DNA from: Ostreococcus lucimarinus
Lineage: Eukaryota
Length of the DNA stretch: 64,000 nt
Direction: 5' to 3' (one strand)
Assembly: GCA_000092065.1 (NCBI GenBank)
Contig: CP000581.1
The notes under the pieces were generated by a model, which saw nothing but the letters and a program-made list of their open reading frames with translations, was not told where the DNA came from and did not search any database. This document shows, piece by piece, positions 1 through 53,759 of this stretch. A program made the translations under genes and the position numbers. Every line of letters begins with the position of its first letter. Within the stretch, counting starts at the first letter, position 1.

Positions 1-1339
1 TACTGAGTGGTTTGGGTTTCGATCGAATCAAGTCAACCGCCTGACCGAGAGTTTTATACGGCAAGACACACAAAATCGGCGCGAAGAGCTCCGCGTTCAT
101 GAACGGTGACTTTTCGCTGGCGCACTTTACCACTGTTGGTTCAACCATGCGCCTTGTGACGTCATATCCTCCGCCGCATATGATCTGATCGCCCTCAACG
201 CCCGATTTCGCGTCGTCGAGCATCTTGCCAATCTTTGCCATCCGAGATGCCGGGTTAGGACCACCGATGCGCGCCATGGCGCCATCGACGGACGCGTCCG
301 GAACGAAGCGATTTGCCCATGTCTTACACAACTCCATGAAGCGGTCGGCGCGTGATTCATGACAAATCACGTACTCTGGTGCGATGCATTGTTGGCCGCA
401 ATTGATTGTGCGACCCCACATGCACTGCTTCGCCGCTATGTTGAGGTCCGCGCAATCTGTGACGACGACAGGATTCTTTCCTCCTAGCTCGAGCACCGTC
501 GGCGTCAAATTTTCGGCAGCGGCGCGCGCGACTATCTTCCCCACGGTCGTGGATCCAGTGAAAAATATCATGTCAAACTTTTCCTTCAGAACGGTCTGCA
601 TGACGTCTATTCCATCCCCTTTCACCTCGCTCCCTACGCACTGCACCACGCGCGGGTCGCAATACTGCCGCAACAACTTCACCAACAATGCCGTCGACAC
701 CGCACTTTCGTTCGATGGCTTCAACACCACAGTGTTCCCAGCCGCAATCGCGCCAGCCAACGGCACCAGACTCAACATGAATGGGAAATTCCAACTCGAG
801 CACACCAACGCGCAACCGCGTGGCTGCTTCTCCGTCCACTGACTCGAAGGCCACGTGATCAATCGCTGCGTCCACACCCTGCGTCTCCCCGTCCACGCGC
901 GCAGGTTATTCACCATCGCTTTAATCTCCGATCGAGGCAGTATCACATCGTAATACAACGCCTCCACGCCGACTCGAGACAAATCTTCTCGCAGCGCCGC
1001 CAACATCTCGGCTTCGTGCTCGCGAATCATCTTCAGCAGCGCCATGAGCTGCTGTCGCCGTTTCTGCAGCGGGAGCGACAACCCTGCCGCGAAACACGCG
1101 CGCATATCTTCACACACGTCTGGGATCTCGCTCAGCGTCGGTCCGCGCGCGACTTTCGCGGCGTCGTCGACGAATTTCAGCGTCAATCCGGGCAGTTGAA
1201 AGTATTGCGATTTCTTCGCGTACACCCCCGGCGTGGCGAAGAACCGAGCGATGAAGACGCATAGCAGCGCGACGATCACGGCCAGCACGTCGATTGCCAC
1301 CTCGCCGTTCTCTTCGACGTCGTAAAAAAAGTCGAGCAT
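1..1339 (-). CDS. Aldehyde dehydrogenase, ALDH3 (fatty aldehyde dehydrogenase-like) family. The C-terminal part runs off the left edge of the window.
   Basis: Manual minus-strand translation from the ATG at 1339 gives one continuous frame: MLDFFYDVEENGEVAIDVLAVIVALL...WNFPFMLSLVPLAGAIAAGNTVVLKPS...FFTGSTTVGKIVARAAAENLTPTVLELGGKNPVVV...NCGQQCIAPEYVICHE...ELFAPILCVLP. These match the ALDH motifs WNYP, GAIAAGN, ELGGK, GQxCxAPDY and EIFGP. The ORF is absent from the track because it is truncated at the edge. Track ORFs 573..896(-) and 384..842(+) are out-of-frame or antisense overlaps. Confidence 0.8.
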   Translation of the reverse strand, partial: MLDFFYDVEENGEVAIDVLAVIVALLCVFIARFFATPGVYAKKSQYFQLPGLTLKFVDDAAKVARGPTLSEIPDVCEDMRACFAAGLSLPLQKRRQQLMALLKMIREHEAEMLAALREDLSRVGVEALYYDVILPRSEIKAMVNNLRAWTGRRRVWTQRLITWPSSQWTEKQPRGCALVCSSWNFPFMLSLVPLAGAIAAGNTVVLKPSNESAVSTALLVKLLRQYCDPRVVQCVGSEVKGDGIDVMQTVLKEKFDMIFFTGSTTVGKIVARAAAENLTPTVLELGGKNPVVVTDCADLNIAAKQCMWGRTINCGQQCIAPEYVICHESRADRFMELCKTWANRFVPDASVDGAMARIGGPNPASRMAKIGKMLDDAKSGVEGDQIICGGGYDVTRRMVEPTVVKCASEKSPFMNAELFAPILCVLPYKTLGQAVDLIRSKPKPLS

Positions 1340-1485
1340 CGCGCGAAGGCTCACGCGAGCGCGCGAGTGCGGCAATCTGTCAAAGCAAAGCGCGACTACG
1401 AGCGAGAGGCGGGGTCATCGGTTACATATGAATAGCTGCGTCTCGATTTACAAAATCATCGCGGTGTGAGCGATGTGACGATGCG

Positions 1486-2352
1486 TTAGTTTTTCGCCGC
1501 CTTTTCCGCTTGCGGTCGGCCCTCGACGCGTCCAAACTCAGCGACGGTGCAACCGAGCGCCTCGAGATTTTGGAGAACGTACTTGTCGTCGACCGACGGG
1601 AACTCGGCGAGACCGGTGGGCAAATGCATGATGCACTCCAAAACGATATCCTTGCCGGATCGGTACTCGTCCATGTGACTCAACGTCACCCCCTTGGAGC
1701 ATAAGAATTCGGTGATTTCGTTCACCACGCCCTTTTTGAACGGCACGCTCATCGTCGCTTTACGCACATACGGCAAGAGCGGGGACGTCTCGCAGTACGG
1801 ACCCTTGATGTCTTGCACCGTGTTTTTCGCCGGAAACACGGAAAAGAAATCAAACACTTGTCCCTCGAATTGCTTTTTAAGCGCCATCGGGTCCACGTTC
1901 GTCACCAAGAACATGTTCGAAGCCCGACCGCCGAGTCGGACGTTGCGCGACTCCTTAATCTCTGCCCCCGACGCTTCGATCATGCGGTGCACCTCACTGA
2001 CGGGTTTTTGAGCTCCAATCATCGTCACCAGAAGCGGCGCGTCCGCGCTGGCCGCGAACGCGCGCGTCCCCGCGACGCGCGTTCCGATGGTTTGTCCAAG
2101 ACTCATCAGCGCGTTATCCACAAAAGACGCGCCCTCGGCGCGTCGCAACGCGCCCGCGGCGCGTCGGCACGCGTGACGCGCGGCGTACATAATTCGATGC
2201 GCGCTTCGATGCGGGCGATCGTCGTCGCGCGCGCGCGTCGCAGAATATCGCGCGTTCGACGAAGAAAATACCCGATTGAGCCCCCTCTCGAACGCGACGA
2301 TCCGCCGGAAAACGCGACGCGCGCGACCGCGCGAGGACGAGCGCGCCGGCAT
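1486..2352 (-). CDS. ACT-domain repeat protein with a probable organelle-targeting presequence. An internal Met at ~2190 is the more likely start.
   Basis: 288-aa ORF. The central and C-terminal part (LLVTMIGAQKPVSEVHRMIEASGAEIKES...; VLECIMHLPTGLAEFPSVDDKYVLQNLEALGCTVAEFG) resembles tandem ACT/regulatory ligand-binding folds. The N-terminus is Arg-rich. The track start codon at 2350-2352 shares the palindrome CATG with the COQ5 ATG at 2351, so the upstream-most start is doubtful. Confidence 0.4.
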   Translation of the reverse strand: MPARSSSRGRARRVFRRIVAFERGLNRVFSSSNARYSATRARDDDRPHRSAHRIMYAARHACRRAAGALRRAEGASFVDNALMSLGQTIGTRVAGTRAFAASADAPLLVTMIGAQKPVSEVHRMIEASGAEIKESRNVRLGGRASNMFLVTNVDPMALKKQFEGQVFDFFSVFPAKNTVQDIKGPYCETSPLLPYVRKATMSVPFKKGVVNEITEFLCSKGVTLSHMDEYRSGKDIVLECIMHLPTGLAEFPSVDDKYVLQNLEALGCTVAEFGRVEGRPQAEKAAKN

Positions 2353-3304
2353 GGCGCTCCGAGTGTTCGCGTCGAGATGTGCGCGCGGCGCGGCGCGCGT
2401 CTCGAGCGCGCGCGCGTTCGCGACGTCGCCGTCAACGACGGCGGACGAACCGCCGACGACAGCGGACGAAGCGTCGACGTCGTCGACGCATCGCGGCGAA
2501 GCGAAGACGGCGAGCTTCGGTTACGTCGAAGTCGACGCTCGGGAGAAGGAATCGCTCGTCAGGGGGGTGTTCGAGCGCGTGGCGCCGTCGTACGACGTGA
2601 TGAATGATTTGATGTCCGCGGGCGTGCACAGGCTGTGGAAGGATTACTTTGTGAGTAAAGTTGGCGTGTTCGCGGGGATGACGCACTTGGACGTCGCGGG
2701 AGGGACTGGGGACATCGCGTTTCGCGTGCTGCGAGCGCTGCAGAGAGTTGAGCGCGAGGCTGAGCTCGATGGCCAGGTTTTGGATGCGAATACGCGAGGT
2801 AAAGTCGTGGTGAGCGACATCAACCCGGCGATGTTGCGCGAGGGGATGAAACGAGCCACGCAGCGTGGGTTGAATCAAGAGCAATTAACCTGGCTGGAGG
2901 GCAACGCGGAAAAATTGCCCGTCGAGGACGAGTCCGTCGATGTGTACACGATCGCGTTCGGGTTGAGAAACGTAACGGATACGAGGGCGGCGATCGCAGA
3001 CGCCTACCGATGTCTGAAACCCGGAGGAAAGTACATGATTTTGGAGTTCAGTCACGTCGAGAACGAAATTCTTAAGCAAGTGTATGACTTTTATAGCTTC
3101 AACGTGATTCCAAAGCTCGGTGAGCTAGTCGCACGCGATAGAGGATCATATCAGTACTTGGTGGAAAGCATCAGGAAGTTTCCACCACAGGAAAAGTTGA
3201 AATCCATGATGCGAGACGTCGGCTTTAAGCACGTGAGTCATGAAAACTTGACCGGAGGTATGGTGGCCGTACACACCGGCTACAAGACCAAGGATCGAAT
3301 TTAG
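2351..3304 (+). CDS. COQ5: 2-methoxy-6-polyprenyl-1,4-benzoquinol methyltransferase (COQ5/UbiE family), with a mitochondrial-type presequence.
   Basis: ATG at 2351 (MALRVFASRC...). Canonical UbiE/COQ5 signature VFERVAPSYDVMNDLMSAGVHRLWKDY, SAM-binding motif LDVAGGTGDIAF, and the C-terminal LKPGGKYMILEFSHVENEILKQVYDFYSFNVIPKLGELVARDRGSYQYLVESIRKFP block. Confidence 0.85.
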   Translation: MALRVFASRCARGAARVSSARAFATSPSTTADEPPTTADEASTSSTHRGEAKTASFGYVEVDAREKESLVRGVFERVAPSYDVMNDLMSAGVHRLWKDYFVSKVGVFAGMTHLDVAGGTGDIAFRVLRALQRVEREAELDGQVLDANTRGKVVVSDINPAMLREGMKRATQRGLNQEQLTWLEGNAEKLPVEDESVDVYTIAFGLRNVTDTRAAIADAYRCLKPGGKYMILEFSHVENEILKQVYDFYSFNVIPKLGELVARDRGSYQYLVESIRKFPPQEKLKSMMRDVGFKHVSHENLTGGMVAVHTGYKTKDRI

Positions 3305-3337
3305 CATTTCTTCAGTTTTAAAACAAGCAAAGCATTT

Positions 3338-5011
3338 TTAAAGCGACGCTTCGGAATCGACGAATGCGAAAGGATCGAAATCTTCGTCGTCAGCCTCCAT
3401 GGCCAACGCGCGAACCTCATTCTTGAGTTCTTTCTTCGACCTTTTAGTCGTTTTCGCCTTCTTACGCGCAAGCGGTATTGCCGTCATCGGTCGCTTTGAA
3501 GCGATGGGCACTCGCTCATCCGGCGGAGACTCTTCGTCTTGACGAGGTTGAGGCCGCGAACGCGCCCGCCGCTTGCTCGAACCGAGATGCGGCGTCGGGA
3601 GTGCTTCTTCTCTTTGAGAACCCAATGATTTAGGACCCGAACGCTGCTTCGATCTCTGCTTGGGTGGTTTGGGCACTTCAAGTTCCTCATCGACAGTCTC
3701 ACGCGAACGTCGTAGCTCTTCGCGAAGTTCGTTGATCGAAGTCTCGAGCAAATCAATCTTTTCGTTTTTCGCCGCAAGCTGACGCGCATGCTCCTCGTCC
3801 TTCTTGTTGATCCATTCTTTGTTTTGCTTCGTCAGCAATTCTATTTGCTTTTCCATTTTTTCGTTCACTTTGGTTTCGTGCAGTTTATTCGTCGCCTCGT
3901 GTTTGCGCTCGAGAGCTTCGTACTCCTCTTTGAGTCGCGTTCGAGTCGACTCGATTTCAGCCGTCAAAGCTTCGATTTTTTCACGCTGTTCGGCACCAGA
4001 CGTTTCAAGCTTTTTATTTTGAGCGTGAAACATCTCACGTTCTTCCTCGGCGTGCTTCAGTTTCATCGCTAGATCGAGCTTTGCCTCATCTGCTTCAGCG
4101 ATTTTCTCCCTCATTGATTCGACTTGTTCGTTCATCTCCATTTCCGCTTGGTCTACTTTTTTCTTGTTTTCAGCATTTTCAGCTTTGATGGTGGCGAGCG
4201 ATCGCTTGATTTTATCGAGCTCTTTTGTTCTAGCAGCTAGTTGCGGCGTCAGCTCGTGTATCTGGCGCTCAAGTTCGACTTGCTTTTCTTCCCAACTGCT
4301 CGTTTGAGCCTGTGCGGCTGCCGACTTTTCACGCTCCCGTTCGAGCTCGTCGTCTTTCGCCGCTAGTTGCTTCTCCACTATTCGCAACTTTTCATCATGA
4401 AGCGATCGCAAACTTTTCTCTATCTTCTCGTGTTCCTGCTCGAGCCGCTTCATCATTTGCTCCTTCGTTTGCACGACTTCTTCGCTAGCTTTGAGTTGGA
4501 TTTCGACTTTGGCGGAGCGATCGCTCAAGGCGTTCAACTGCGTGTTCAGCGTCTCCTTTTCCGTCTCGAGCGCATTCAAGCGGACGTTCGCGTTGTCCAA
4601 TTTCAACTGCATTTCGCCCATATCAGCGCTCAACTTGCGCGTATGTCGCTTCATTCGATCGCACTCTTCCTTCTTCAACGCCAACTCTTCGGAGATCGAC
4701 GACACCCGCTCCATCATTTCCTTGTCATCCTTCAAGCGATCCTCCACCAATTTCGAGGACACGTCGTAATTTCCTTTCGCCTCCTCCAGTAAGACCCCCG
4801 CGCGCGCCTGGTTGGCTTTGATATCGTGTATGATCTCCTCCAACTCCTGCTGCTTCATCAACAATTCTCTTCGCTCTCGCTTTCCGCTCTCCAACGTCGC
4901 CTTCAAAGCCGCGCACTGCGCCAACGCCGCGCCGCGTTCGTGTTCTAATCGCTGGATCTCCTCTCTCTGTTCCTCGTTCATGCGCTTCAGATCATCGCTC
5001 GCAGCCTTCAT
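3338..5011 (-). CDS. Long coiled-coil protein of unknown function.
   Basis: 557-aa ORF from the ATG at 5011 (MKAASDDLKRMNEEQREEIQRLE...). Heptad-rich K/E/L/Q composition throughout, acidic C-terminus (DDEDFDPFAFVDSEASL). The coding strand has visibly lower GC than the antisense junk ORFs around it. Confidence 0.5.
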   Translation of the reverse strand: MKAASDDLKRMNEEQREEIQRLEHERGAALAQCAALKATLESGKRERRELLMKQQELEEIIHDIKANQARAGVLLEEAKGNYDVSSKLVEDRLKDDKEMMERVSSISEELALKKEECDRMKRHTRKLSADMGEMQLKLDNANVRLNALETEKETLNTQLNALSDRSAKVEIQLKASEEVVQTKEQMMKRLEQEHEKIEKSLRSLHDEKLRIVEKQLAAKDDELEREREKSAAAQAQTSSWEEKQVELERQIHELTPQLAARTKELDKIKRSLATIKAENAENKKKVDQAEMEMNEQVESMREKIAEADEAKLDLAMKLKHAEEEREMFHAQNKKLETSGAEQREKIEALTAEIESTRTRLKEEYEALERKHEATNKLHETKVNEKMEKQIELLTKQNKEWINKKDEEHARQLAAKNEKIDLLETSINELREELRRSRETVDEELEVPKPPKQRSKQRSGPKSLGSQREEALPTPHLGSSKRRARSRPQPRQDEESPPDERVPIASKRPMTAIPLARKKAKTTKRSKKELKNEVRALAMEADDEDFDPFAFVDSEASL

Positions 5012-5598
5012 CGCGATGTATTCCGACGCAATCCGTCCTACGCCGAGCGCGAGCGTGGCGATCGTCCGTCAGTCAGATCTGCCCGTCGTCCGTCGTCGAT
5101 CGGCGTGGCGCGCGTTCTCGGACAAAACGAGGCACCCGAGCGCGCACCAGTCTCCGCGCGTAACCCCGTGAGCGTGCCCGTCGCCTGGCTCGTCGGTGCG
5201 CTCAAAACGGTCGTGCGAGAAAACGAACGCATCTCCATCCGATCGCCGCGCGGCTCCGCGCTCGCGAACGCGAGTTCTCGTCCGCGAGCGCTCGCGGATG
5301 GGAGCTGCAATGAGGACGGTCGAGGCGCGACGTGTTTGCGAGCGACGTCGTCGACGACGCGCGGATGCGACATGGCGCGTCGGGCGAGAATCAACGGTAT
5401 CGGTCGAGACCTGTCTTCTATTCGAGCGTTGTCTCGCGCGCGTTGGTGCGCGTTGCGTCGAGTTGTGCGCGCTCGCGCGCGCGCGGTCTCGGAAGTGTCA
5501 GATCGTGAATAATCTTACTGTACGGTGCTAAATTTCGTTTGTTGGCGCCGAATGACGACGTCGTTTTCTATGTATGTGCGCGCTTGGAGCTCGAGCTG

Positions 5599-7386
5599 CT
5601 AGCGCTTCTCATCGCGCTTGCTCTGATCCTGCTTGGAGGATCCGCCGGTCCAGCCCGCCGGCTTTTGTTGCCCGCCGCCGCTCCCGCCGGCGGCCCAACC
5701 AGCCGTCTTACTGCCGCGATAACCGCTGTACGATCCACCGCTCGCGCCAGTTTTGATGTTCAAATTTGAGTAGCTTCCAGTCTTACCGCCTAAACTGTTC
5801 AAGCCACCGCCTATACTTCCGAATCCTCCCAAAGCGTTGCCGCCGCGATTGGCGTAAGACTGGTGCTGCTGCGGCGGACCACTTGACCAACCAGCAGCGG
5901 ACGACCCTGCGCCGTATCGACCACTGGGTGCAGATGGCACGCCCGGACGGCCACTACCACCAGGAGGCGGGCGACCACCTCCGGGCGGTCGTGGACCGCC
6001 AGGGCCGGGGCCTCGTCTCATATCCGTCGGAGGCGGAGGCGCTCTGCCGTCGTCGGTGCGTTGTCTCTTATTCTGCTGCTCCGCCGCGGCGCGCTTTGCC
6101 TCTTGACGGCGCTTTTTCGTTTGGAACTCGTGCGAAGGCTCGTACCGAGGCAGGTCTTCAGGCTCGCACGCGATCGGATCTTCCCAGAACCAATCTGAAT
6201 CTAAAGCTTGAATCGCCGTGATCCGCTTTGCCGGATCTAACGTCAAGAAACGCTCGACCAAATCCTTCGCGCTCGGGGAAAACCGGGCGAAAACTTCGCG
6301 CAGTCTTCGCGGATAATGCTTCTTTTGCTTGAAATGTTTCGCGTACGGCAGCTTGTCGGCGTCCGGCCAGTTCTCCGGCGTCGGAGTACCGCAGAGCCTA
6401 AAGATGAGATCCAGTTGTTCCATCTCGCCTTTCCCAGGAAGAATCGGTTTTCCGTGCACGAGTTCGGCGAAAATGCAACCCGCACTCCACATGTCGACGC
6501 TCGGACCGTACTGTGTCGCACCGAGTAACAGCTCGGGCGGACGATACCAAAGTGTGATGACTCGGTTCGTCAGCGGATTTGCGTTTTCGTTCGTAATCGA
6601 CTTCGCCAAACCAAAATCCGCCAGCTTCAGCACCCCGTTGTTGTTGATGAGCAAGTTACTTCCTTTGATATCGCGATGAAGAATATTGTTGATGTGACAG
6701 TAATGCAAACCCGTGAGCAGCTGCTTCATGTAACACTTTATCTGCGGCAAGCTAAACTTCATACCTGGCCGTTCCGCCAGCCCGGTGAGGTCGTGATCCA
6801 TGTACTCAAACACCAAGTAAATGCTCCCCTTGTGTCCATTCGACGCGTTCGCCTTAGAGGTGACGATCTCTTTCAAATCAACCACGTTTTTGTGCCGAAG
6901 TTTCTTCAAGATTTTAATCTCTCGAATAGCCGTGATTGGGAACCCTTCCTTCTCGTTGTCCATTCGAATCTTCTTTAGCGCCACGATGTCTTGCGTCTCC
7001 TTGCATCGAGCCATGTACACCTGCGTTAACAACGGAAACACGCTCGTCGGTGAGTCTCTTAGCTCGGGTCGGGCGCGACGGTGCGCGTTCGCGGCGGCGT
7101 CTATGTCTCGTCGCGATCTTCCATTCCTTCCCCTCGCGTTCGCTTTGTTCGCTTCGCGCGCGCGGCTCGCTCGTCACCTCGCACGCACCTGTCCGTACGT
7201 CCCCTCGCCCACTTGTTCGAGCTTCTCGTAGCACTCCACGCTGCGCGCGCCCCAGTTTTCGTAGCGACGCGGCGTCACACCGCCTTGCGCCGCGGTGGAT
7301 CTGTTGGCGGCGTCGACTTCGTTTCGTGCGCGCGCCGGCGCGCTCGCGCCCGGGGCGGCGTGCGGACCGCCTTGAGGTCCCGCCAT
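5599..7386 (-). CDS. CDKC: Cyclin-dependent kinase of the CDKC/CDK9-like class (PITAIRE motif). Two exons: complement(7189..7386) and complement(5599..7020).
   Basis: Exon 1 (ATG at 7386) ends ...YEKLEQVGEGTYGQ, followed by a GTGCGT donor. Exon 2 begins VYMARCKETQDIVALKKIRMDNEKEGFPITAIREIKILKKL after the acceptor ...gttaacgcag. Together they restore the glycine loop GEGTYGQVY and the PITAIRE helix. HRDIKGSNLL, DFGLA and WYRPPE are present. Low-complexity Gly/Pro/Ser-rich C-terminal tail. Confidence 0.85.
7021..7188 (-). other. Spliceosomal intron (168 nt) of the CDKC-like gene.
   Basis: Without splicing, the kinase lacks its ATP-binding glycine loop. The donor CAG|GTGCGT and acceptor CGCAG|GTG join the two exon frames exactly. 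Confidence 0.75.
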
Positions 7387-32601: not shown

Positions 32602-32674
32602 GAGGAGGAGGAAACGAGAGAGTTTTTGTATGAGATTGCAAACGCATACTCGACGCTTTTAGCGAGCCTCGGCG
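32602..32674. repeat. Second copy of a 73-bp segment whose first copy (31088..31160) encodes the C-terminal tail of VPS28. About 97% identical, same orientation, 1.5 kb apart.
   Basis: Both copies read gaggaggaggaaacgagagagtttttgtatgagattg[a/c]aaacgcatactcgacg[t/c]ttttagcgagcctcggcg. Copy 2 overlaps the last five codons and TAA stop of the opposite-strand GTPBP1 gene. Confidence 0.7.
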
Positions 32675-34443
32675 ACGTGCGCGCTCTCGACGGTAGCTAT
32701 GTGTGTGGTTTTGTAAGTCCTCGGTGGCGTACGCGGTACGTCGGCACAAATCGTTCGAATCACGCCGACGCCTTTCGTTCGTCCTTCGCGGAAAATGATG
32801 CGCGTCCCTTCGCACAAAAATTCAGGCCTGTGGCACCACTCGAATGTCACCATGGCTCGATCGCCCATGCGTAACAAGTCTTTGCCTTCGATTGCGCTGA
32901 TACGCGCCGCTTGTCGCACGGTGAGAGCGTGTAGCACTGGCGAATAGTTCACCCGAAGCGTGGTCGGGTGCGCCAAGATGATGACTTCTGCCTTGAATAC
33001 CCACGTAGCTTTCGGCTGAACGCTCGCGTCGCACAAAACCATGCCTTTACGAATTTCTTCCTTATGGATGTGCCCTTTCTTCGGCTTAATGGCGAAGCTT
33101 GCCGTGTTCCCTTGACCGACTGCTTCGACCGCCACACGCTTATTTTGGATGCTCTTTACCTGCACTGGCGTGAATGCGCCGCGGCCATCAGGCCCGAGTA
33201 ACATCGACGCGTGCGTCGTAATTTTTCCGCTCACGACGAGACCGCTCACCACCGTGCCGATACCTTGCACACTGAAAGATTCATCCAAGTGCACAAGCGC
33301 GCGGTCGCCTTCAAGCGGCTTGAATGTCCGCCTGCTTGGAATGTGATTCAAGAACATCCTTATCAGATCGAGTCCTAGTCCCGTGACGCACGACGCCTGA
33401 AATATCGGCGTGATCACGCCGCCGGCGATGTTCTTTACAGATGTCATGACATCGATGTCATCGCGCACGAGGATGGGCGTTTTATGTACGCCCGGGCGCT
33501 TGAGCATCTTCATAAGAGCGTCTAGCGTCGCCACTCTGTTCTCTTCGCTCGCCATGTCAACCTTGGTGACGATGACGAAAAAAGGTACCTTCAAGCCGAG
33601 CATAATTGATAAATGCTCCCGCGTCATGCCTATGATTCCGCCTCTGTTCGCGTCTACGCACATGAGCGCGAAATCAGGCAGCGACCCAGCGATGCCATGC
33701 ATCGTCGTTCGTAAGTACTTTTCGTGCCCGCACAAGTCGCTAAAATGCACGACTTTCGACGACGCCGCGCAGATTTGCTCCCACCTCAACTGATGTGCCT
33801 CTCGTACGTCTGGGTTGGAGTAGTTGATTATATTTCCTTTCGCATCGAATCCCATAATTTGCGACGAGATCGAACTCGTCCTTCCGCTCTCGAGCTCGTG
33901 TTTATGTCGAAACACGCCCCCGCGCGCCAGTCCTCGACCGTTATCCAAACCACCTTTTGTGAGCACGCCCAAAACCGTTGATTTCCCGGAATCCACATTT
34001 CCCAACGTCGTTATTCTGATCTCTTTGTGTTCGCTCGAGCACGGGCGTCGACGCACCAAAAACGTCGCGATTCGCTTTCCCGTCTTCGTCCGCCGTTCGC
34101 ACACCACCGACACATCGCACTCGATAGCCTCTGCCATTCGTTTCAACGTCGCCACGCTCTCCTCCATCTCGCATTCGCTCAATCCGAACACCGTCCCGTC
34201 GTCGTCCACTCCTAAATCGTACAACGCCTCGCCCGCGCCCTCCGCGAGGCAGCGCCAGTGGAGCTGCGTCACGAGTTCCTCGAATCGCTCGGGGGCGACG
34301 TCCACCAAACGCCGCTTGTACTCGCGATTTCCATCGTCGCGCTCGGGTTCGAGCGCGCGCGCGAGCTGATCGAACCCGAACGCGTCCGTCGGCGAGCTCG
34401 ACGATTTTTTGGCGGCCGCGGTCGCTGACGCGGCATCCGTCAT
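32659..34443 (-). CDS. GTPBP1: GTP-binding protein 1 (GTPBP1/GTPBP2 family translational GTPase).
   Basis: NREYKRRLVD, G1 GNVDSGKST, G3 DLCGHEKY, G4 TKVD, followed by EF-Tu-like beta-barrel domains. Overall collinearity with GTPBP1. Confidence 0.8.
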   Translation of the reverse strand: MTDAASATAAAKKSSSSPTDAFGFDQLARALEPERDDGNREYKRRLVDVAPERFEELVTQLHWRCLAEGAGEALYDLGVDDDGTVFGLSECEMEESVATLKRMAEAIECDVSVVCERRTKTGKRIATFLVRRRPCSSEHKEIRITTLGNVDSGKSTVLGVLTKGGLDNGRGLARGGVFRHKHELESGRTSSISSQIMGFDAKGNIINYSNPDVREAHQLRWEQICAASSKVVHFSDLCGHEKYLRTTMHGIAGSLPDFALMCVDANRGGIIGMTREHLSIMLGLKVPFFVIVTKVDMASEENRVATLDALMKMLKRPGVHKTPILVRDDIDVMTSVKNIAGGVITPIFQASCVTGLGLDLIRMFLNHIPSRRTFKPLEGDRALVHLDESFSVQGIGTVVSGLVVSGKITTHASMLLGPDGRGAFTPVQVKSIQNKRVAVEAVGQGNTASFAIKPKKGHIHKEEIRKGMVLCDASVQPKATWVFKAEVIILAHPTTLRVNYSPVLHALTVRQAARISAIEGKDLLRMGDRAMVTFEWCHRPEFLCEGTRIIFREGRTKGVGVIRTICADVPRTPPRTYKTTHIATVESAHVAEAR

Positions 34444-34620: not shown

Positions 34621-37600
34621 TCACGAGACGGAGACCGAGGTCATGTTCCACTCTAAGATGTCGACGGCTTGCCAGAGATCTCCCGTGGCGGCGGTGAAGC
34701 CGACCCACGCGCTGCCGCTCGTGGCGGAGTCGCGCAAGATGCTCTCGATGTTGAAAGGGACGCTCATCAGCGGTGAGGACATGTCGTCGAGGTAGACGGA
34801 GACGACTCCGAGGGAGTCGGCGGTGTGCGCGCTGAGGGCGGTGGACAAACCGGTGATTTCACCGGACTCGATGGCGAAAAACATCTCCTCAGAGGTGATG
34901 TTGGGCTTGTACGTGATGAAGACTTCGTGAATCTGACCGTCGGTGATGCTCGTCGTGGGCACGGAACCGTCAAGAGCGACGGTCGCGAGGCTCGCCGCCG
35001 AATGCGCCGTGTTTGGGGATTTACCGCGAGTGTGAATCGCGACGTGACTCTCACGTGGTTCGTTATATGCTGCGGTGAACACGGTGTCGAACTCGAACGC
35101 AATCGAATTGGTGATGCCACCGTATCCCAATCCGGGACCATCGAACCCGATGTCTGTCGCTCCCGGCGCCGAAGCGCTATCGTCGCGAATGACAAACGCA
35201 AAGCCGTCGCCGCCCGAAGTCGTACACTTTTCATAGAGCTTAGTGTGTAAAGACTGCACGAACGCACCGCTGACGCTCTCGGCGTAGTCACATGTGACTG
35301 TCGGTTGCGTGATCATGAACTTGAAGGTCACGTTGAATCCTTGCGCGACTTGCTGTTGCTGTGGATACCACACCGCGCCGCTCGCGTTTCGCACGGGATC
35401 GATGACCCGTAGTGCTTTGTAGTCGCACGCCCCGAGCTCGTCGGTTTCTTGGCTCGCCGTACGCGAGAGTCGTGTGCGCAGCGTCCCAAATGAGTCTATA
35501 CGTCTTGGTCCGCGAGCAGCATTTTGCGTGGTCGTCGTTTTCTGCCCAAAGTCTTGCGTCCACCAACCACCCGTAACGCGCCACGAGCCGCTCGCCCAGC
35601 TCCGCTCCATCTTTGAACTTTTCTTTTCCTCGCTCGCTTGCAGCCAAACCCGCTCACATGTTGGAGGTACGGGCTCGGGTTCAGTTCTCCAGTCGGCGAC
35701 GCACGTACACCGCTGATCGGCCCATTCTGCGACGTAGTCCAACACTCTCTCCGAATACGGGTTCCAGTCACGATCGAGACGTGACTGTGCCTCGGTCCAG
35801 TCTTCCGGCATACTCGCGCTCGTGGTGATGATTCCTAAATAGTTCGACCCCGTTTTCTTGCCGTGCAGTCTATGACCAGCCCGATACGTCGCCCCCGTGC
35901 AAAACGGATAAATAACACCGACGAATTCCGGTTTCACTTGCAACGCTTGATATTCGCTCGTATTCGTCACTCGACTACCAGTGACGACGACTGTGTTCAC
36001 CGTGTTCGGCACGCTCGTGGAGCTGATCACATCCGCTCGTCCGCTCACAAAAATCGACTGCCAAGAATCTAAATATTCTTGCTCGACGGAAGTGTAGCCG
36101 TATTCGACGCTTTCAGTGACATCAATAACTGCAGCGTTAGCAATCTGCGAATCCGGCTCGATGGTGTAGATCGTCTCCGTGTTCGTCGACGATTCGGTGT
36201 ACGTCAAAGATCCTCCTCGGATCTGTTCTTTCGTGAATGGACCGATCACTACACCGCTTGGAAGTTTAACGAGGAAGATTTCTTCGCACGCATTCGCGTT
36301 GGTCTTCCTATCCGTGGCATCCGCCGCTAAACACGAGCCACATGCGTCGAGCGTTTTACCGCTATTCGGCACGCCGTCACAACCGCAACATCCGCCGCCC
36401 CCCGCTGCACACGCGGTGATGAAAGCATCGGGGTCGCTACACCCGCTACCAACCTCGCCAACTTGTACGAGCAGCGTCTTCGCTCCCGAAACGGCGTCGA
36501 TACTATACATTCTTGTGTCGTCAGAGTCGTAGCACGCGTCTTGCACTTTACCGCTCGCGACGATGCCGTCGCAACCGACGCAATCCAAGCCGTTGCTACT
36601 CCCTCCACAAATCCCACACACATCCACCTCAGTCGATCCACCACACACATCGCAATCATCTGGATACAAGCCCTCTAACGGCCCTACCGGAAGCGGCGTC
36701 GCGCTCGTCGCACAACCTAAACAAGACGAAAGCTGCCCCTTGCAAACGCCGCACGCGTCGCGATTGTTTGTCACTTGCGGTAAAGCCGTGAGCTCTGGAT
36801 AGCACATCGTCGTACCTGGAACAGCGGCCTGCGTGGCGACGAGCGCCCATGCATCTTTGAACGCCTGTTCTGCCTGTTCATAGAGCGTCTGCGCCGCAGC
36901 CTTGTGTCTTGGTTCTACCAGCGCGCGAAACGTCGTCATCGTCGCCGCCGCCGCCGCGAACGCCTCTTGCCCTTGCGTCCATAAATTTTCTATCTGCGTG
37001 TGCTCGGCTGGTTTCACACCGTTGGGGTAGTACGATGCGCCGTCGATGCATTCACAACACAAATCTTGCGCGCTCGTCCCGAAAGCCACGCCGGCGCAAT
37101 CGCAGCACCAGCTCCACAGCGACGGATCCGTTCCCGAGCACCCGTTCCCGCCGCACACCCCGCACACGTCCATCACCGCTCCGCTATTCGCGACTCCATC
37201 GCACCCGACGCAGCCACCGAGATGATGATCCGGGACCCCCTCTCGCGAAAACGTCGCGTCCGTCGGCGCTTTACAATTCCCGCACGCGTCCGTCGTCGCG
37301 GCGCCGCCCGTGACGCTCGCGCAGTCCTCGCACGTGGCGTTAAACGTACACGTTATGGACGTATCGCTCTTATCGCACGCCGTCCCGCACGCCCCGCACG
37401 CATCGAACACCTTCCCACTGTTCGTCACGCCATCGCATCCCTGACACGCCGCGCCGTCCCCGCCGCACGTCCCGCACGCGTCCACGACGCGTTCGCGAAA
37501 CGCCGCCGTCCCCGCGTACGTCACCGTCGTCCCCGTCCCCGTCGACGGCATCACGCTGAACGCCCCTCGCGCCGGCACCGCGACGCTCGCGAGCGCGAGC

Positions 37601-37650
37601 ACCCCCCCCACGATCGCCCGCGCCGCCGTCGCCGGTCGTCGCCGTCCCAT
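34621..37650 (-). CDS. Secreted multidomain protein: signal peptide, a run of cysteine-rich CGxCGG-type modules, a central domain of unknown function, and a C-terminal legume-type (L-type) lectin domain.
   Basis: ATG at 37650 (MGRRRPATAARAIVGGVLALASVAVPARG). Repeated DACGTCGGDGAACQGCDGVTNSGKVFDACGACG / GCVGCDGVANSGAVMDVCGVCGGNGC motifs. C-terminus GDGFAFVIRDDSASAPGATDIGFDGPGLGYGGITNSIAFEFDTV...HVAIHT...VFITY...AWVGFTAATGDLWQAVDILEW matches the legume-lectin beta-sandwich motifs. Confidence 0.65.
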   Translation of the reverse strand: MGRRRPATAARAIVGGVLALASVAVPARGAFSVMPSTGTGTTVTYAGTAAFRERVVDACGTCGGDGAACQGCDGVTNSGKVFDACGACGTACDKSDTSITCTFNATCEDCASVTGGAATTDACGNCKAPTDATFSREGVPDHHLGGCVGCDGVANSGAVMDVCGVCGGNGCSGTDPSLWSWCCDCAGVAFGTSAQDLCCECIDGASYYPNGVKPAEHTQIENLWTQGQEAFAAAAATMTTFRALVEPRHKAAAQTLYEQAEQAFKDAWALVATQAAVPGTTMCYPELTALPQVTNNRDACGVCKGQLSSCLGCATSATPLPVGPLEGLYPDDCDVCGGSTEVDVCGICGGSSNGLDCVGCDGIVASGKVQDACYDSDDTRMYSIDAVSGAKTLLVQVGEVGSGCSDPDAFITACAAGGGGCCGCDGVPNSGKTLDACGSCLAADATDRKTNANACEEIFLVKLPSGVVIGPFTKEQIRGGSLTYTESSTNTETIYTIEPDSQIANAAVIDVTESVEYGYTSVEQEYLDSWQSIFVSGRADVISSTSVPNTVNTVVVTGSRVTNTSEYQALQVKPEFVGVIYPFCTGATYRAGHRLHGKKTGSNYLGIITTSASMPEDWTEAQSRLDRDWNPYSERVLDYVAEWADQRCTCVADWRTEPEPVPPTCERVWLQASEEKKSSKMERSWASGSWRVTGGWWTQDFGQKTTTTQNAARGPRRIDSFGTLRTRLSRTASQETDELGACDYKALRVIDPVRNASGAVWYPQQQQVAQGFNVTFKFMITQPTVTCDYAESVSGAFVQSLHTKLYEKCTTSGGDGFAFVIRDDSASAPGATDIGFDGPGLGYGGITNSIAFEFDTVFTAAYNEPRESHVAIHTRGKSPNTAHSAASLATVALDGSVPTTSITDGQIHEVFITYKPNITSEEMFFAIESGEITGLSTALSAHTADSLGVVSVYLDDMSSPLMSVPFNIESILRDSATSGSAWVGFTAATGDLWQAVDILEWNMTSVSVS

Positions 37651-47407: not shown

Positions 47408-48457
47408 TCATTCGCCCGCGGCGGCGATGACACCCGCCACGATGGCGGCGACGGCGCCCGCCGACGCGACGCGAAGCTCGGGATCGAAGACGCTCTTGCC
47501 GTGCTCCGCCGCCTTGGAGATGGCTGGGTCGAGTGGAACTTTACCCAGAAACGGCACGTTGAACTGCGCGCACATGGCTTCGGCGCCGCCTTTCGAGGGC
47601 GCAAATACGTCCGTGCGCGCGCTGAGCGAATCCGCGAGCTCGGGCGCGTGCGTCGCCAAAAGCTCGCGCACGCGACTCGTCTCATCCGCGCCCGTGTCCT
47701 CGTTCACGAACGACATCTCGCGCATGGGCACGCGAAGTCCGGACATGTTTTCCACCACCCCCAAAACCTTGATGCCGGTCTTTTTGCAAAAGTTGAGCTC
47801 CTTGCGCACGTCCGCCACCGCCACCTCTTGCGGCGTCGTCACCACCAGCGCGCCGTCCACGCCCGCCTCCTTCAAATACTGCACCACGCTCAAGTGCTCG
47901 TCCGACGTCCCGGGCGGCGCGTCGACGATCAAGTAATCCAGCTCCCCCCACTCCGTGTCCGCCAAGAACTGCTTGATCAAACCATTCTTCCTCGGCCCTC
48001 GCCAAATCACCGCGTCGTCTCGATTCGGCAGCATGAACCCGATCGACATCACCGCCAGATTCTCCTCCACGTACACCGGCGACCACCCAGAGTTACTCTT
48101 GTGCACCTCCGCCTCCGCGTCGCCGCACATCGTCGGCACCGACGGTCCGCAGATGTCCACGTCCAGCAGTCCAACCTCTTTCCCTCGTCCCGCGAGCCCG
48201 AACGCCAACTGCGCCGCGAACGTGCTCTTCCCGACCCCGCCCTTGCCGCTCAGCACCAATATCTTTCGCCGCACCCCGCGCAGGCGCTCGGCGACGCGCG
48301 TCGCGTCCGCGTCGGTGCCCTCGCGCGCTTTCGCCGCCTCGCCCGACGCGCACGCCGCGCGATTGGGACACCCCGCGCACGACGCCTCGCGCCCGGCGCG
48401 CGCGCTCGCGGTTCCCGGGCACGCCTCCGGCGCGTTCTCGGGCCTGTCGTCCGCCAT
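47408..48457 (-). CDS. NBP35: Cytosolic Fe-S cluster assembly factor NBP35 (Mrp/NBP35 P-loop ATPase).
   Basis: ATG at 48457. N-terminal four-Cys motif [25 protein letters not shown]-loop [22 protein letters not shown]. Mrp signature through VENMSG. The upstream track ORF (to 49045) is antisense to the next gene. Confidence 0.85.
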
Positions 48458-48599
48458 CGTCGCGCGCGGCGACGCGACGCGCGCGCGAGTGCGGCGGACG
48501 GCGCCGACCTCCAGCGCAACACCATCCGGAAGAAAACGCGGCAGAAGCGCGCGCGCAGCGTCGGCCGCTCGAGCGCGCGGCGCTCGAGCCGCGCGCGCG

Positions 48600-51500
48600 A
48601 TGACGGACAACGCGCACGCGCACGCGCGGCGCGGCCGCGCGAGCGAAGACGCGAACGAGCGCGCGAGGACGGCGCGACGAAGCGTCGATGCGTGGGCGAT
48701 GCACGACGCGGCGAGACCGCTCGACGGCGCCGTGGGCGACGCGAATCGCGAGCGTCGGGCGTCGGGAAGCGAGACGACGTCGGTGACGCTATCCGTCGGC
48801 GATGGACGCGCGCGAACGGGCGAGGGAGGGGCGCCGCGAGCGCCGCCGGGGGCGTTCGCGATGCAATCGCGCGCGCTCGCGGAGGAGGAAAAACGCGTGT
48901 ACGAGACGAGACGGACGTCGTGGGAGGCGCTGGCGCGCGAAGCGCGCGAAAAATGCGCGCAAGGGACGCTGCGGGACGTGTGGTTGCGCGAAAGGCTGTC
49001 GAACATCACGAGAAAGACGCACGAGGGGGAGCGGACGGCGCTCATGACTGATTACTTCGCCGACGCGGACGATCGCGTGGCGGTGGAGGGAGTTGATGGC
49101 GTGCGAAGAGGGATGACGCATCGTGAATTGCGAGTTTTGATCGATCGAGTGTGTGAAAAAGATATGCCCGAGTGGGGCGTGCGCGCGCACGGTGGGAGAA
49201 TCGCGGTGGTGGTGCCAAACGGGCCCGAACTCATGACTTCTTTGATGTGCGTGTTGCAGCGACACTGCGCGGTGCCCATCAATCCGGTGACGACGCAAGA
49301 GGAGATTGAAGAAGAGCTGTTGAATACGAACGCGAAAGTGTTGTTGTATCAACGTGACGGGGGTAAGGGCGATGTTAAGATGCGTCGGTTGTGCAAGAAG
49401 CTCAAGTTGACGCCTTTGATCATCACGCCGAGCCCGACAGTGGCGGGCGATTTCACTCTCATCGGCGATCCGTACGGCTTAGCCACAGAAGAGGACTCGG
49501 CTGGGAACGACATCGAGCTCATGCAAGCCGACCGCTTGGCTTTGATTCTACACACGTCTGGGAGCACGGGGAAAAAGAAGGTTGTTCCCATTGCGATGTC
49601 GCAAATCCTTATCGGCGCCGCCGCCATCGCGGCGTCTTGCGGCTTGAATGAAGACGATATTTGCTGCAACTTCATGCCGTTGTTCCACGTCGGAGGTATC
49701 TTAAGAAATGTACTGGCGCCAATCATGTCCGGTGGATCCACGGTTGCTATGCCTTTCTTCGATGTCGACAACTTTTGGGAAGTCCTCGAGAGCAAAAAGT
49801 GCACGTGGTACTACGGCGCGCCGACTATGCACATGCTCATCGTAAAGTCCGCGGAAACCATGGCGAAGAACGACAAGGGATCAGTAAAGACATGTGTGAG
49901 GTTTGTCGCCAACGCTGCGGGCCCGTTACAACCGGCGACCGCGACGGAACTTCGACGCTTGTTCAACAACGCCTCGGTTTTGCCTTCGTACGGTATGACG
50001 GAGTGCATGCCTATCTCGTGCCCGCCCATGGGATACGCGTTAGAGCGCCCGGGGACTTCTGGTCGATCAATCGGGCCGGAAATCGGCATCATAGACGATA
50101 GCGGTAATCTTTGCCCTTCTGGTGCGGTTGGGAACATCATGGTGCGTGGCCCTCTCGTGTTGACCGGGTACGAGGGCGAAGCGCCCGGTTCGAGCGGATT
50201 TGAGCCGGGAGGCTGGTTTAACACTGGCGACATGGGTAGGATGGATGATGATGGTTATTTGTACGTCACTGGTCGGACGAAAGAAGTCATTAATAGAGGA
50301 GGGGAAATCATCTCGCCGGTTGAGATTGAGGAAGCGCTCGCGTCGCTACCGGCAGTGTCTGAGTGCGTCGCCATCTCTGTCCCACACGGTACGCTTCAAG
50401 AAGTTGTTGGGGTCTTGGTTGTTCCAGTGAAAGGTGGACAAGTTCCCGGTATGCGGCAAATCGTACAGCACGTCGCCAAACGTTTGCCACCGTCCAAGTG
50501 GCCGCAGTGCCTTATTTTAGCGAGTGGCATTCCGAAGTCCATCACGGGAAAAGTGAGTCGCAGCGTGATCACTAGGCAGCTGCGACTACCTTCGCTCGAA
50601 GATGGTATGCGGGAGTTAGAAACAACGTTTGAAGCAGACTTTGCGGACAACGCCCTCTCTGGGGCACAGGCATTGAATGTAGACAACGCCTCGTCAGAAG
50701 TCGTGCAAGCGCTTCTTCTAGTGCCTGGCGTCAACGACGCCGGAGCTTGGATGGATAGCACCGGCTCAATCATCGCTGTCGTTACCCCGAAAACGCTCGA
50801 TGCGTCATCGGTGAGCTCGGCATCCACGCGTTACCTTCCTGGTTATCTTGAACCAAAGGAAATCTTGCCCGTGGCGTCAGTCCCACGAGATGCGCAAGGC
50901 GCCATCGAAGTTTCCAAAGTTTACGAAATGATGCGCCAAGATTTGACAGACGCTCCAGCGAACCCCAATCAAGAGCTTCTCGCGCATTTGTGGGGCGAAG
51001 TGCTCGGTACGGATTCGAGCATGATATCCATCAAGGATGATTTCTTCCTGAGCGGCGGCTCGTCCATTGCGGCGGGTCAACTCGCGGGTTTGATTCGCAA
51101 GAAGTTTGAAGTCAACATCACCGGAGCGGATATGTTCGAGCTTCGCACGATTCAAAGAATTGCGCAGATGATCGACAAGCGTACGAAGGAGGCGGAGAGC
51201 TCGGATAGTAAGCCGACGCACGCTCCACGACCCGTCGGCCCGGTTGACTGGGTCACGCCGAAGTCAAGCTTGGGCATCATCCCGAGCATCGTGCAGCTAA
51301 TGCCCTTGTACCTGATCAAGCCATTCTACAACATGGCACGTTGGGTTTTGTTCTTGATGTGCTGGTCGCACGTGTTCCACTACCTCGGTCCGAGCTTGCA
51401 TTGGATGAGGCGCGAGCACTTCATGGCTAAGGCTCAAAAGTTTGGCATGAATGAGGCGCATTCGCACTTTTACAGTACCGTGCAGCTTCTGTCGTTCTTC

Positions 51501-53759
51501 GTGGCGATATTCTTTGTAGCTTTGATCGTGTCGATACTGTTCCCACTTAGCGCGATCGTGTTCAAGTGGGTAGTGTTGGGGCGATTACAAGCGGGATCGT
51601 ATCCACTTTGGGGGCAGTACTACTTGCGATGGTTCTTAGTCGAGCAAGTGACCAAGATTGCGGGTCTCGGCATTTTTGATCTTTCTCCATGGTTGTTCAC
51701 TTGGTACATGCGCATGATGGGGGCTTCGATTGGAAAAAGTTCATATGTTAGCCCGAAAGCCATCATCGGCGACTTTGATCTTATCACGATTGAAAAGAAC
51801 ACCACTGTAGATGAAGGGTGCAACATTCGCGCCTTTGAAGCGCGTCGCGGCGGTATGCGTCTGTCGCCAATTTTCATCGGTGAAGGTTGCACGCTGTGCG
51901 TCCACGCGGTGTGCGGGCCGGGCGCATACGTTCCAGCTGGTTCGACACTTGCCGCTTTCACATCCTGGAGAGAGATGGATCCGCAACAAGTCCGGCCCGT
52001 GAGCACGAAAACGGCACAAATGCACTCGGAAACGCCGCGGTTGGCGTCGCGTTTGTTCGTCGCGTTTCCCATCGTTTTCACGTGCTTCTTCGTTCGTTGG
52101 CTGCCGTGGGTTTTAGTGCTGCGCGTCGTCCAGCAACACTCCATCGGAGATAACTTACTCACGCACGCGGGTATGGCAAACTGGAGACAAGAGCTCGACA
52201 CACTTGACAACGACTACGACGCGCTCGAAGTGTTCGTCACGCTGCTCGGGCGTTTGAGCTGGACGGATTGCATCGAATGGTTTATGGACCCGTTTCGGCT
52301 GGGTTGCATAGCGCTTGCGCGTCTGATGCACGCGACTGCCGGCCCGTTTGTACAGCTTTTCGCGACGATTCTAGTCAAGCGCGTCATCATTGGTAAGTTT
52401 AAATCTGGCGGCTTACCGCAAGCGCCGGCGGCGCGCGAGTGGGAATTGACACGTCGCTACATCATGCGTAAACTTTGCCCTAATGGCAAGTTTTACGGTG
52501 CGACGGATCTACTAGGTAAGCATTACCAGTACACAACGTATATTTACCGTGCGCTTGGCGCGACGGTTGGTGAGCGCATATTCTGGCCAGGCTCTGGCGT
52601 CATCGTCGGGGACGGAATGTACGATCTTTTGCACATAGAAGACGATGTCGTGTGGGGATCACGTTCTGCGGTGTATCCAGCAGATACCATCGGAGCTCTT
52701 CCCATACGTATTCGGCGTGGCGCGAACATCAGCGACCGTTGCGTCATCTTTGGAGGCGTTACTGTGATGCCGAACGCGTGCCTCGGCTCTGGGAGCGTCG
52801 CCGCTCGCAAGATGACGATTGCGAGCGGGTCGATTTGGGTCGGCAGTCGCAATGGCGTAGCCGTACAACTCGACCCTGGCGGTGCGTCGAGTATGATGGA
52901 TGAGCGCCAGACCGCGAAGCCATTCGGACGTGCAACGTACTTGGGACAAGCGACGTACCCCGTCGTCCCGTGGTACTTCATGCCCGTGATTTGTATCAGC
53001 GTGCAAATTTTCAAAGCCGCCGCGAACATGTTGCCGATTTACGTCGCGTGGTACGCCACCGCGTACATCTCCAGAGTATACCTTGACGAAGATTGGCAAA
53101 CTCTCGACGCGACACGGTACTTGAGCATCTTGTTCGTCGTATTCTTGATTTTGCGCGGTGTTCAAACGACGTTCAATCTCGTGAATTCCATCTTTCTGAA
53201 GTGGATCATCGTCGGTCGACGCACGCCCGGAAACTATCCGTGGGACACTAGTTCGTATTGTTTCCGCTGGAAACTGTGCGATATCATGAGCGACACGACA
53301 GATTTAATGCTTCTCTCCGGAAGCGAACATTTGTGCCGATACTTCCGCGCGAAAGGAGCCAACATTGGGCAGAACGTTTGTTTGTACCCCACGGGAGCGG
53401 ATCCGCCCATGCCCGAACCAGACTTGGTCACTATTGGCGACGGCGCGTGCATCAATTTCGCCCACGTCATCGCGCACACGAATACGTTGGGCGCTTTTGC
53501 GCTGAACAACATTCTCATTCGCGAACGCTCGACCCTCTGCATGGAGAGTCGTGTCATGGGTGGCACGAAAGTCGGAGCAGATTCCATTCTCCTCGAACAC
53601 ACGCTCGCAATGGTGGGTGACGATGTTGAACGCGGGGGGATCTGGCAAGGATGGCCCGTACAAATGGTTTTGAATTCGTGCGAACGCCCGCGCGGAAAGT
53701 CGTCGCCGTCAGGCCCCGAGAAGGCAAGTCCGATGGCCAAATCATATGGGGCCATGTAA
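48600..53759 (+). CDS. Pls-type (epsilon-poly-L-lysine synthetase-like) single-module nonribosomal synthetase. Domains: adenylation (~49100..50570), thiolation/PCP (~50960..51190), then a membrane region with six predicted transmembrane helices interleaved with three tandem hexapeptide-repeat (LbH) modules C1 (~51700..51960), C2 (~52550..52830) and C3 (~53350..53640).
   Basis: Single 1719-codon exon from ATG 48600 (alternative start 48861). A-domain cores: [15 protein letters not shown] (A3), SYGMTEC (A5), [39 protein letters not shown] (A7/A8), [11 protein letters not shown] (A10). Carrier motif [15 protein letters not shown]-terminal 850 aa are an internal triplication, each unit holding a pair of hydrophobic helices followed by the motif (K/R)W(V/I)(V/I)(L/V)GR..(A/P)G.YP and then [LIV]GxxxxI-type hexapeptide repeats. 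Confidence 0.8.

Follow-up and report, generated by a model that had tools for sequence, protein, structure and literature searches.

In legume (L-type) lectins, the asparagine of the metal- and sugar-binding loop binds both Ca2+ and sugar, and the ligand residues carry the well-established numbering of concanavalin A (ConA). Described members include the plant seed lectins (peanut, pea, PAL and ConA) and a legume-lectin domain of Methanocaldococcus jannaschii (PDB 7elv/7exo). Here we analysed a gene of Ostreococcus lucimarinus that differs from these in that its lectin domain is the C-terminal module of a multi-domain protein of 1009 residues. The gene lies in a 64,000-nucleotide stretch of contig CP000581.1 (assembly GCA_000092065.1), hereafter the window. 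In a lectin survey (PMC6362431 supplement), O. lucimarinus had been credited with three genes for legume-lectin domains, of which two lie on chromosome 1, and an 'O. tauri lectin' modelled from genome sequence has appeared in reviews (PMC6723950). Our literature searches (motif, Ostreococcus lectin, secretome and virus links) found neither a study of the protein nor a description of its full architecture. The original prediction, made from the letters of the window, had called the protein unusual. This is fair for the domain combination, whereas the legume-lectin genes of the species had already been surveyed. The L-type lectin and the cysteine modules, which resemble the tail of an ADAMTS cysteine-rich domain, are known parts; here, in a protein conserved among picoalgae, they are joined to a central unit that is specific to the family.

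We propose that the 1009-residue product is probably exported and binds glycans as a component of the cell surface or matrix. The gene and the parts of its product are given below in window coordinates, with residue numbers in brackets. The central unit comprises the α/β domain and the invariant stretch (residues 455-720).

34621..37650, minus strand: complete coding sequence, from translation of the open reading frame (ORF), collinear orthologues (P0002-P0007) and synteny in two metagenomic contigs (L001 and L002).
37564..37650, minus strand: signal-peptide-like leader (residues 1-29); its n-region is basic, its hydrophobic core spans 14 residues, and A-R-G precedes the likely site of cleavage.
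37042..37491, minus strand: first cysteine cluster (residues 54-203), from regular-expression counts, a module hidden Markov model (HMM), a profile match to ADAMTS5 and a weak ADAMTS_CR_3 match.
36826..37008, minus strand: helical hairpin (residues 215-275) between the cysteine clusters, two long antiparallel helices in the AlphaFold2 model.
36319..36765, minus strand: second cysteine cluster (residues 296-444), from regular-expression counts and the module HMM.
35926..36288, minus strand: compact α/β domain (residues 455-575), for which the second AlphaFold2 run gave a predicted local distance difference test (pLDDT) of about 85-93.
35491..35925, minus strand: most invariant stretch of the family (residues 576-720), from the family alignment.
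34624..35490, minus strand: L-type (legume) lectin β-sandwich (residues 721-1009); the protein ends directly after it.
35032..35100, minus strand: putative metal- and sugar-binding loop AFEFDTVFTAAYNEPRESHVAIH (residues 851-873), from its ConA spacing.

The C-terminal legume lectin named in the original prediction was borne out by domain models, motifs and fold. The Pfam model Lectin_legB (PF00139) matched residues 790-1006 with 41.0 bits against a cutoff of 26.3, and it matched 23 of the 27 family members at E<=1. The model of bacterial/archaeal-type L-lectins (PF18483) matched all 27; for the O. lucimarinus protein the match covered positions 30-167 of 215 with 51.2 bits against a cutoff of 78.3, and the three members with known scores (46.7-51.2 bits) were all below this cutoff. 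The motifs AFEFDT, HVAIH and VGFTAATG were located at residues 851-856, 869-873 and 983-990, respectively. AlphaFold2 was run twice, once on the full-length protein and then on residues 455-1009 with 40 sequences; in the second run the lectin domain was modelled with pLDDT of about 90. The modelled fold superposes on solved L-type lectins, and a lectin with bound sugar came out far ahead of all other structural matches. By both sequence and fold, the protein is best placed in the L-type lectin family. A family profile searched against the PDB matched 58 L-type (legume) lectin sequences at E<1e-3. A viral structure library returned generic ConA-like matches only.

The residues Glu853, Asp855, Val857, Thr859, Glu864 and His869 reproduce the spacing of ConA Glu8, Asp10, Tyr12, Asn14, Asp19 and His24 (offsets 0, 2, 4, 6, 11 and 16). 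In the putative Mn/Ca site of the domain, to which the original prediction had drawn attention, Glu853, Asp855, Glu864 and His869 stand at ConA spacing, but Thr859 takes the place of Asn and Val857 that of the aromatic residue. The aromatic residue is shifted by one in O. lucimarinus, with Val at +4 (the ConA Tyr12 position) and Phe at +5. Within the family, Asp815-Gly (in GGDGFAF), Gly842-Tyr-x-Gly845 (in GLGYGG), Glu853, Asp855, Pro865 and His869 are invariant. The sugar-binding triad of Asp, Gly and Asn is represented by Asp815 and Gly842/Gly845, with Asn replaced by Thr859 in the O. lucimarinus protein. At residues 857-859 (window 35074-35082, minus strand), the longer family members (1240-1340 residues) read Trp-His-Asn, and most Ostreococcus-type members read Val-Phe/Tyr-Thr. 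Asn859 is kept in most longer members and in one Ostreococcus-like clade (P0006 and P0010).

In place of the predicted signal peptide, a signal-peptide-like leader was recovered. The N-terminus reads MGRRRPATAARAIVGGVLALASVAVPARG, followed by AF after the likely cleavage site, and it is the sole hydrophobic segment of the protein (19-residue Kyte-Doolittle mean of 1.83, next best 1.23). An equivalent strongly hydrophobic N-terminal stretch was found in 23 of 25 full-length family members. None of the 27 members has a hydrophobic C-terminal stretch, and a borderline internal value was seen in one only. The C-terminus (…WNMTSVSVS) carries no KDEL/HDEL-type signal, and only a few residues follow the lectin domain. 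Two N-glycosylation sequons are conserved, Asn104 in 19 of 27 members and Asn1002 in 17 of 27. The leader, the absent tail, the conserved cysteines described below and the sequons together suggest that the protein would be secreted. A membrane or glycosylphosphatidylinositol anchor was rejected, as there is no hydrophobic tail. The suggestion that the protein might be 'wall-anchored' is unlikely because it has no C-terminal hydrophobic tail or anchor signal. Ostreococcus cells have no cell wall.

The N-terminal half is rich in cysteine, with 23 Cys in residues 31-215 (the first cluster included) and 50 in the whole protein. The repeating unit is a four-cysteine module of ~27 residues, C-x-G-C-D-G-V-x-N-S-G-x3-D-x-C-G-x-C-G-G-x-x-x. 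The module HMM, built solely from modules of other family members, identified ten segments: three complete modules, one truncated (357-373), one degenerate (182-203) and five half modules. In the first cluster, residues 69-94 and 147-172 are complete, and residues 54-67, 117-132 and 182-203 are half or degenerate. The second cluster holds half modules at 296-309, 327-340 and 340-353, the truncated one and a complete one at 421-444. The original prediction had counted at least eight repeats of a long consensus, D.CG.CGG(D/N)G..C.GCDGV.NSG...D.CG.C. The full pattern occurs only once, but the short knot D.C[GDC].C recurs nine times, alongside three instances of CG.CGG and four of C.GCDG[VILA]..SG. 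This recurrence is not due to chance, because 20,000 shuffles of residues 31-460 gave a mean of 0.10 and a maximum of 2 short knots, against the nine observed. Of the 50 Cys, 48 recur in at least 23 of the 27 family members, and every Cys of the second cluster is kept in 26-27 of 27.

When searched against all PDB sequences, the module profile matched only ADAMTS5 (E 5.2e-5) and ADAMTS13 (E 0.17). We take the ADAMTS13 match to lie at the very end of its cysteine-rich domain, where the counterpart of the module is presumably short, lacks secondary structure and is held together by two disulfides; from the ADAMTS13 structure, 1-3/2-4 pairing would be expected in the module. The Pfam model ADAMTS_CR_3 (PF19236) aligned its positions 90-112 of 115 with residues 148-170 when an N-terminal fragment was the query (12.3 bits, cutoff 21); with the full-length protein as query it gave no match. 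The C-terminal sub-motif of the ADAMTS cysteine-rich domain, GCDG…D-x-C-G-x-C-G-G-D-x-S-x-C, is present in the module profile. No Pfam match to a reprolysin protease, disintegrin-like domain, thrombospondin type-1 repeat or spacer was found in the protein or in any of the 27 members, and a thrombospondin type-1 repeat was rejected on this ground. The predicted likeness to ADAMTS/thrombospondin-type proteins thus holds for the end of the ADAMTS cysteine-rich domain, but neither for the whole domain nor for the thrombospondin repeat. At the sequence level, the similarity is homology-grade and limited to the terminal mini-knot, the last ~25 residues of that domain. The same mini-module is found elsewhere in proteins with extracellular domains, which supports a secretory character.

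Between the two clusters, AlphaFold2 placed helices at residues 215-242 and 251-275 (pLDDT about 75-85). This hairpin is poorly conserved (45% identity to the L002 orthologue), but Trp268 is invariant. Trp, Cys, Gly and basic residues abound in the stretch of residues 576-720, which contains the motifs YPFCTG..HRLHGKK, WADQRCTC, PPTCERVW, GGWWTQDYG and RGPRRID. Its many invariant positions include Cys584, His593, His596, Gly597, Asn630, Asp645, Cys648, Cys650, Trp654, Cys665, Trp669, Gly694, Gly695, Asp700, Arg713, Gly714 and Arg717. In both AlphaFold2 runs, residues ~580-715 gave no confident fold (mostly pLDDT <50). Fold searches with whole models as queries assigned no fold to residues 455-575, the lists being filled by lectin matches.

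The central region had been left unassigned in the original prediction, and it stayed so in Pfam and NCBIfam. The isolated central region and the second cysteine cluster had no Pfam match even at E<=10, Pfam searches of all 27 members returned nothing beyond the lectin models, and NCBIfam gave no match for the 1009-residue protein. With residues 455-750 as query, phmmer run exhaustively over 1.84 billion representatives retrieved only 26 proteins, with no sign of another family among them, and the full-length ones that were checked share the architecture of central region plus lectin. By these searches, the central unit is restricted to the algal family and travels with the lectin domain.

The gene itself is intact. 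The ORF runs uninterrupted from 37650 to 34621 on the minus strand as a single exon of 1009 codons plus stop; the original prediction had the span right and left the strand unstated. The start is placed at the ATG at 37650, the first in-frame Met, because the frame remains open upstream as far as 38292 with no ATG and an Arg/Ala-rich, low-complexity translation. An upstream start was rejected, since this stretch is Arg-rich and GC-rich and reads as non-coding. Orthologues of ~1000 residues (P0002-P0007) share 58-67% identity, and longer picoalgal relatives (1220-1340 residues) share 29-38% and the same architecture; both are collinear with the protein from leader to last residue. A 1240-residue member is present as a complete ORF in an MMETSP transcriptome. 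The gene order RPE65, lectin gene, GTPase, VPS28 is kept on the two metagenomic contigs that carry orthologues (L001 and L002). Comparison with a near-identical strain showed five synonymous and three non-synonymous codon differences. Against the 62%-identical L002 orthologue, the ratio of non-synonymous to synonymous substitution rates (dN/dS) was 0.14 overall and 0.10 for the lectin domain, values that are rough because dS is saturated. By these measures, the gene is under purifying selection across Ostreococcus clades. The possibility of a split gene, raised with the original prediction, and that of a pseudogene were both rejected on the uninterrupted frame, the collinear orthologues and the dN/dS of 0.14.

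How might such a protein work? Once the leader is cleaved, a soluble protein of ~980 residues would reside outside the cell or in the cell-surface glycocalyx. Its N-terminal half would form a rigid, disulfide-knotted scaffold of ADAMTS-end modules, interrupted by the helical hairpin. This scaffold would bear the family-specific central unit, an α/β domain followed by the invariant segment rich in Cys, Trp and basic residues. In the C-terminal L-type lectin, the metal site (Glu, Asp, Thr/Asn, Glu and His) would organise the carbohydrate-binding loop. As there is no anchor, attachment to the naked algal surface, or a bridge between surfaces, would depend entirely on the binding partners of the protein's domains: glycans for the lectin end, and a second partner for the cysteine modules and central unit. 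The integrity and conservation of the gene, the leader, the kept cysteines, the lectin fold and the metal-site residues were observed; secretion, actual sugar binding with its specificity, and a role in surface or matrix organisation or adhesion we infer. The original suggestion of cell-surface adhesion or glycan recognition is plausible.

Several points weigh against this proposal. Sugar binding or its specificity is possibly altered because the Ca/sugar Asn is Thr and the aromatic residue is Val in O. lucimarinus, and canonical monosaccharide binding may be altered or lost there. The signal peptide was judged by simple rules, which also gave the cleavage site. Retention at the surface is speculative, because there is no anchor. 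Residues 576-720 might carry the main activity, in which case 'lectin' would be an incomplete description. Finally, our search of the literature found no experiments, localisation or expression data for the 1009-residue protein.

The loop substitutions lead to the first alternative, in which the lectin-fold domain has lost sugar binding in Ostreococcus and serves as a protein-binding or structural β-sandwich, as in the arcelins or the L-lectin-like domain at the C-terminus of thrombospondin. The protein would then be an extracellular matrix or scaffold component whose specificity resides in the invariant central segment. The canonical loop positions of Ostreococcus-type members, where Asn has become Thr and the aromatic residue is gone, would fit, as would the finding that residues 576-720 are the most invariant part of the protein and always lie beside the lectin domain. 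Set against this, Asp815, Gly842/Gly845, Glu853, Asp855, Glu864 and His869 are kept under strong purifying selection, and the closest structural match, by the margin noted above, is a lectin with sugar bound. Moreover, Thr859 can still offer an oxygen to calcium, as could each of Thr, Asn and Asp at this position. We regard a domain without sugar binding as rather unlikely.

A role in biotic interaction, as a gamete agglutinin, a prasinovirus receptor or decoy, or a bacteria catcher, is unlikely. Lectin-glycan contacts have been discussed as central to prasinovirus adsorption (review PMC5371798), giant-virus contigs encode the same 27-residue module in tandem arrays, and bacterial adhesins carry L-lectin modules on stalks. 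However, only the generic cysteine module links the viral proteins to the algal one; they have neither its central unit nor its lectin domain. The gene sits in a housekeeping neighbourhood with conserved synteny and is strongly conserved (dN/dS 0.14), while rapid evolution is usual for proteins of arms races and mating. The kept gene order and the strong purifying selection agree better with a conserved role in cell biology than with a molecule engaged in an arms race.

In the giant-virus metagenome contigs (IMG/VR GVMAG and UViG), the module reads CxGCDGVxNSGxVxDxCGVCGGDGSS and forms clean tandem arrays of 3 to 8 copies in large proteins. The ORFs lie at 888..5849 (plus strand) in L003/L004, 4587..6179 (plus strand) in L005 and 2424..5201 (plus strand) in L007. 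Two of the proteins have a hydrophobic N-terminal leader.

A bolder version would make the central unit (residues 455-720) a new binding or catalytic domain and the protein a key surface determinant of the naked Mamiellophyceae, either as a prasinovirus-facing organiser of the glycocalyx or as an agglutinin for a never-observed sexual cycle, with the giant-virus module proteins docking to or mimicking the same partner; we consider it quite unlikely. That the protein is a lumenal lectin of the secretory pathway, of the cargo-receptor or quality-control type (ERGIC-53, VIP36 and Emp47) and not exported, is very unlikely: those lectins have a type-I membrane build, whereas the algal protein ends after the lectin domain with no transmembrane segment, cytosolic tail or KDEL/HDEL-type signal, its 450-residue cysteine-module scaffold is typical of extracellular proteins, and the Pfam model Lectin_leg-like (PF03388) matched one of the 27 members (E 0.11).

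The secreted, glycan-binding protein that we favour may be incompletely represented in public gene models. The exact 1009-residue product had no record in a look-up of the protein collection, where near-identical 1009-residue versions are on record. A public IMG gene call (P0121; window 34624-37089, minus strand) yields 822 residues identical to residues 188-1009, without the leader and without the first cysteine cluster. Gene models of 1082-1099 residues from other strains are possibly over-extended. Because the IMG call has 822 residues and the exact product is unrecorded, the public models of the locus may lack part of the N-terminus.

The neighbours in the window are ordinary housekeeping genes, encoding an RPE65-type carotenoid oxygenase, a GTPase, a tRNA synthetase, a DnaJ protein and an ABC transporter. 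The product of the adjoining GTPase gene (32662-34443, minus strand) is identical to XP_001415927.1 of O. lucimarinus CCE9901, and the window probably belongs to chromosome 1. Two further ORFs in the window were recorded. One, at 8321-11713 (minus strand), encodes 1131 residues with SPX, RING (C3HC4) and glycerophosphodiester phosphodiesterase (GDPD) domains, a fusion of the phosphate-sensing type. The other, at 47955-53756 (plus strand), encodes 1934 residues with AMP-binding, AMP-binding_C and phosphopantetheine-attachment domains and is nonribosomal-peptide-synthetase-like or carboxylate-reductase-like; no domain was assigned in the ~370 residues before or the ~860 after this block.

Few eukaryotic phytoplankton are as abundant as Ostreococcus and its relatives. 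On their wall-less surface, encounters with viruses, bacteria and other cells are decided by the exposed glycoconjugates and by the proteins that read them. Hardly any of these reader proteins has been characterised. A conserved secreted lectin family, seemingly single-copy in Ostreococcus, is for that reason a concrete candidate for a role in surface contacts. The finding is useful as an annotation and as an experimental target. It is not surprising, its parts being mostly of known kinds, and its weight would rise if the central unit or a role at the naked surface proved special.

In comparison with known systems, the lectin domain resembles the legume lectins and the M. jannaschii domain in its Lectin_legB match above threshold, the spacing of its metal loop and the conserved Asp-Gly, Gly-x-Gly, Glu, Asp and His; the 'LGYGGI' loop of the M. 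jannaschii domain is nearly identical in the algal protein. It differs from plant and archaeal L-type lectins in having Thr for the Ca/sugar Asn, Val for the aromatic residue and Gly, not Ala, before the sugar-binding Asp, and identity is about 17-24%. Outside the family, the lectin domain is closest in sequence to short L-type lectins (250-430 residues) of the bolidophyte Tetraparma and the cryptophytes Guillardia and Baffinella, with 32-38% identity over nearly the whole domain. These are single-domain or CHRD-linked, however, and lack the cysteine modules and the central unit.

The algal cysteine module aligns with the C-terminus of the cysteine-rich domain in ADAMTS5 and ADAMTS13 (PF19236 positions ~87-115). 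Unlike ADAMTS proteins, the algal protein has only the last quarter of this 115-position domain, multiplied and partly degenerate, and no metalloprotease, disintegrin, thrombospondin type-1 repeat or spacer. With protist, bacterial and giant-virus proteins it shares the ~27-residue four-cysteine module, repeated within large secreted or extracellular-type proteins; one of these (P0042) has 14 stretches that match the ADAMTS_CR_3-type mini-module. There, the partner domains are integrin beta, F5/8 type C, REJ and laminin G, beside which the module stands in tandem in many protist proteins, and none has the central unit or an L-type lectin. The arrays are regular in the protist, bacterial and viral proteins, whereas in Ostreococcus the copies are interspersed and degenerate. 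The ADAMTS-end cysteine knot thus appears as a free-standing, repeatable extracellular module in green algae, other protists and giant viruses. Bacterial surface adhesins such as SraP, Aap and YwfG are anchored to the cell wall and have unrelated stalk repeats, whereas the algal protein has no anchor and carries its lectin at the C-terminus. Even so, bacterial adhesins, in which an L-lectin module sits on a repetitive stalk, offer the best working analogy for the O. lucimarinus protein.

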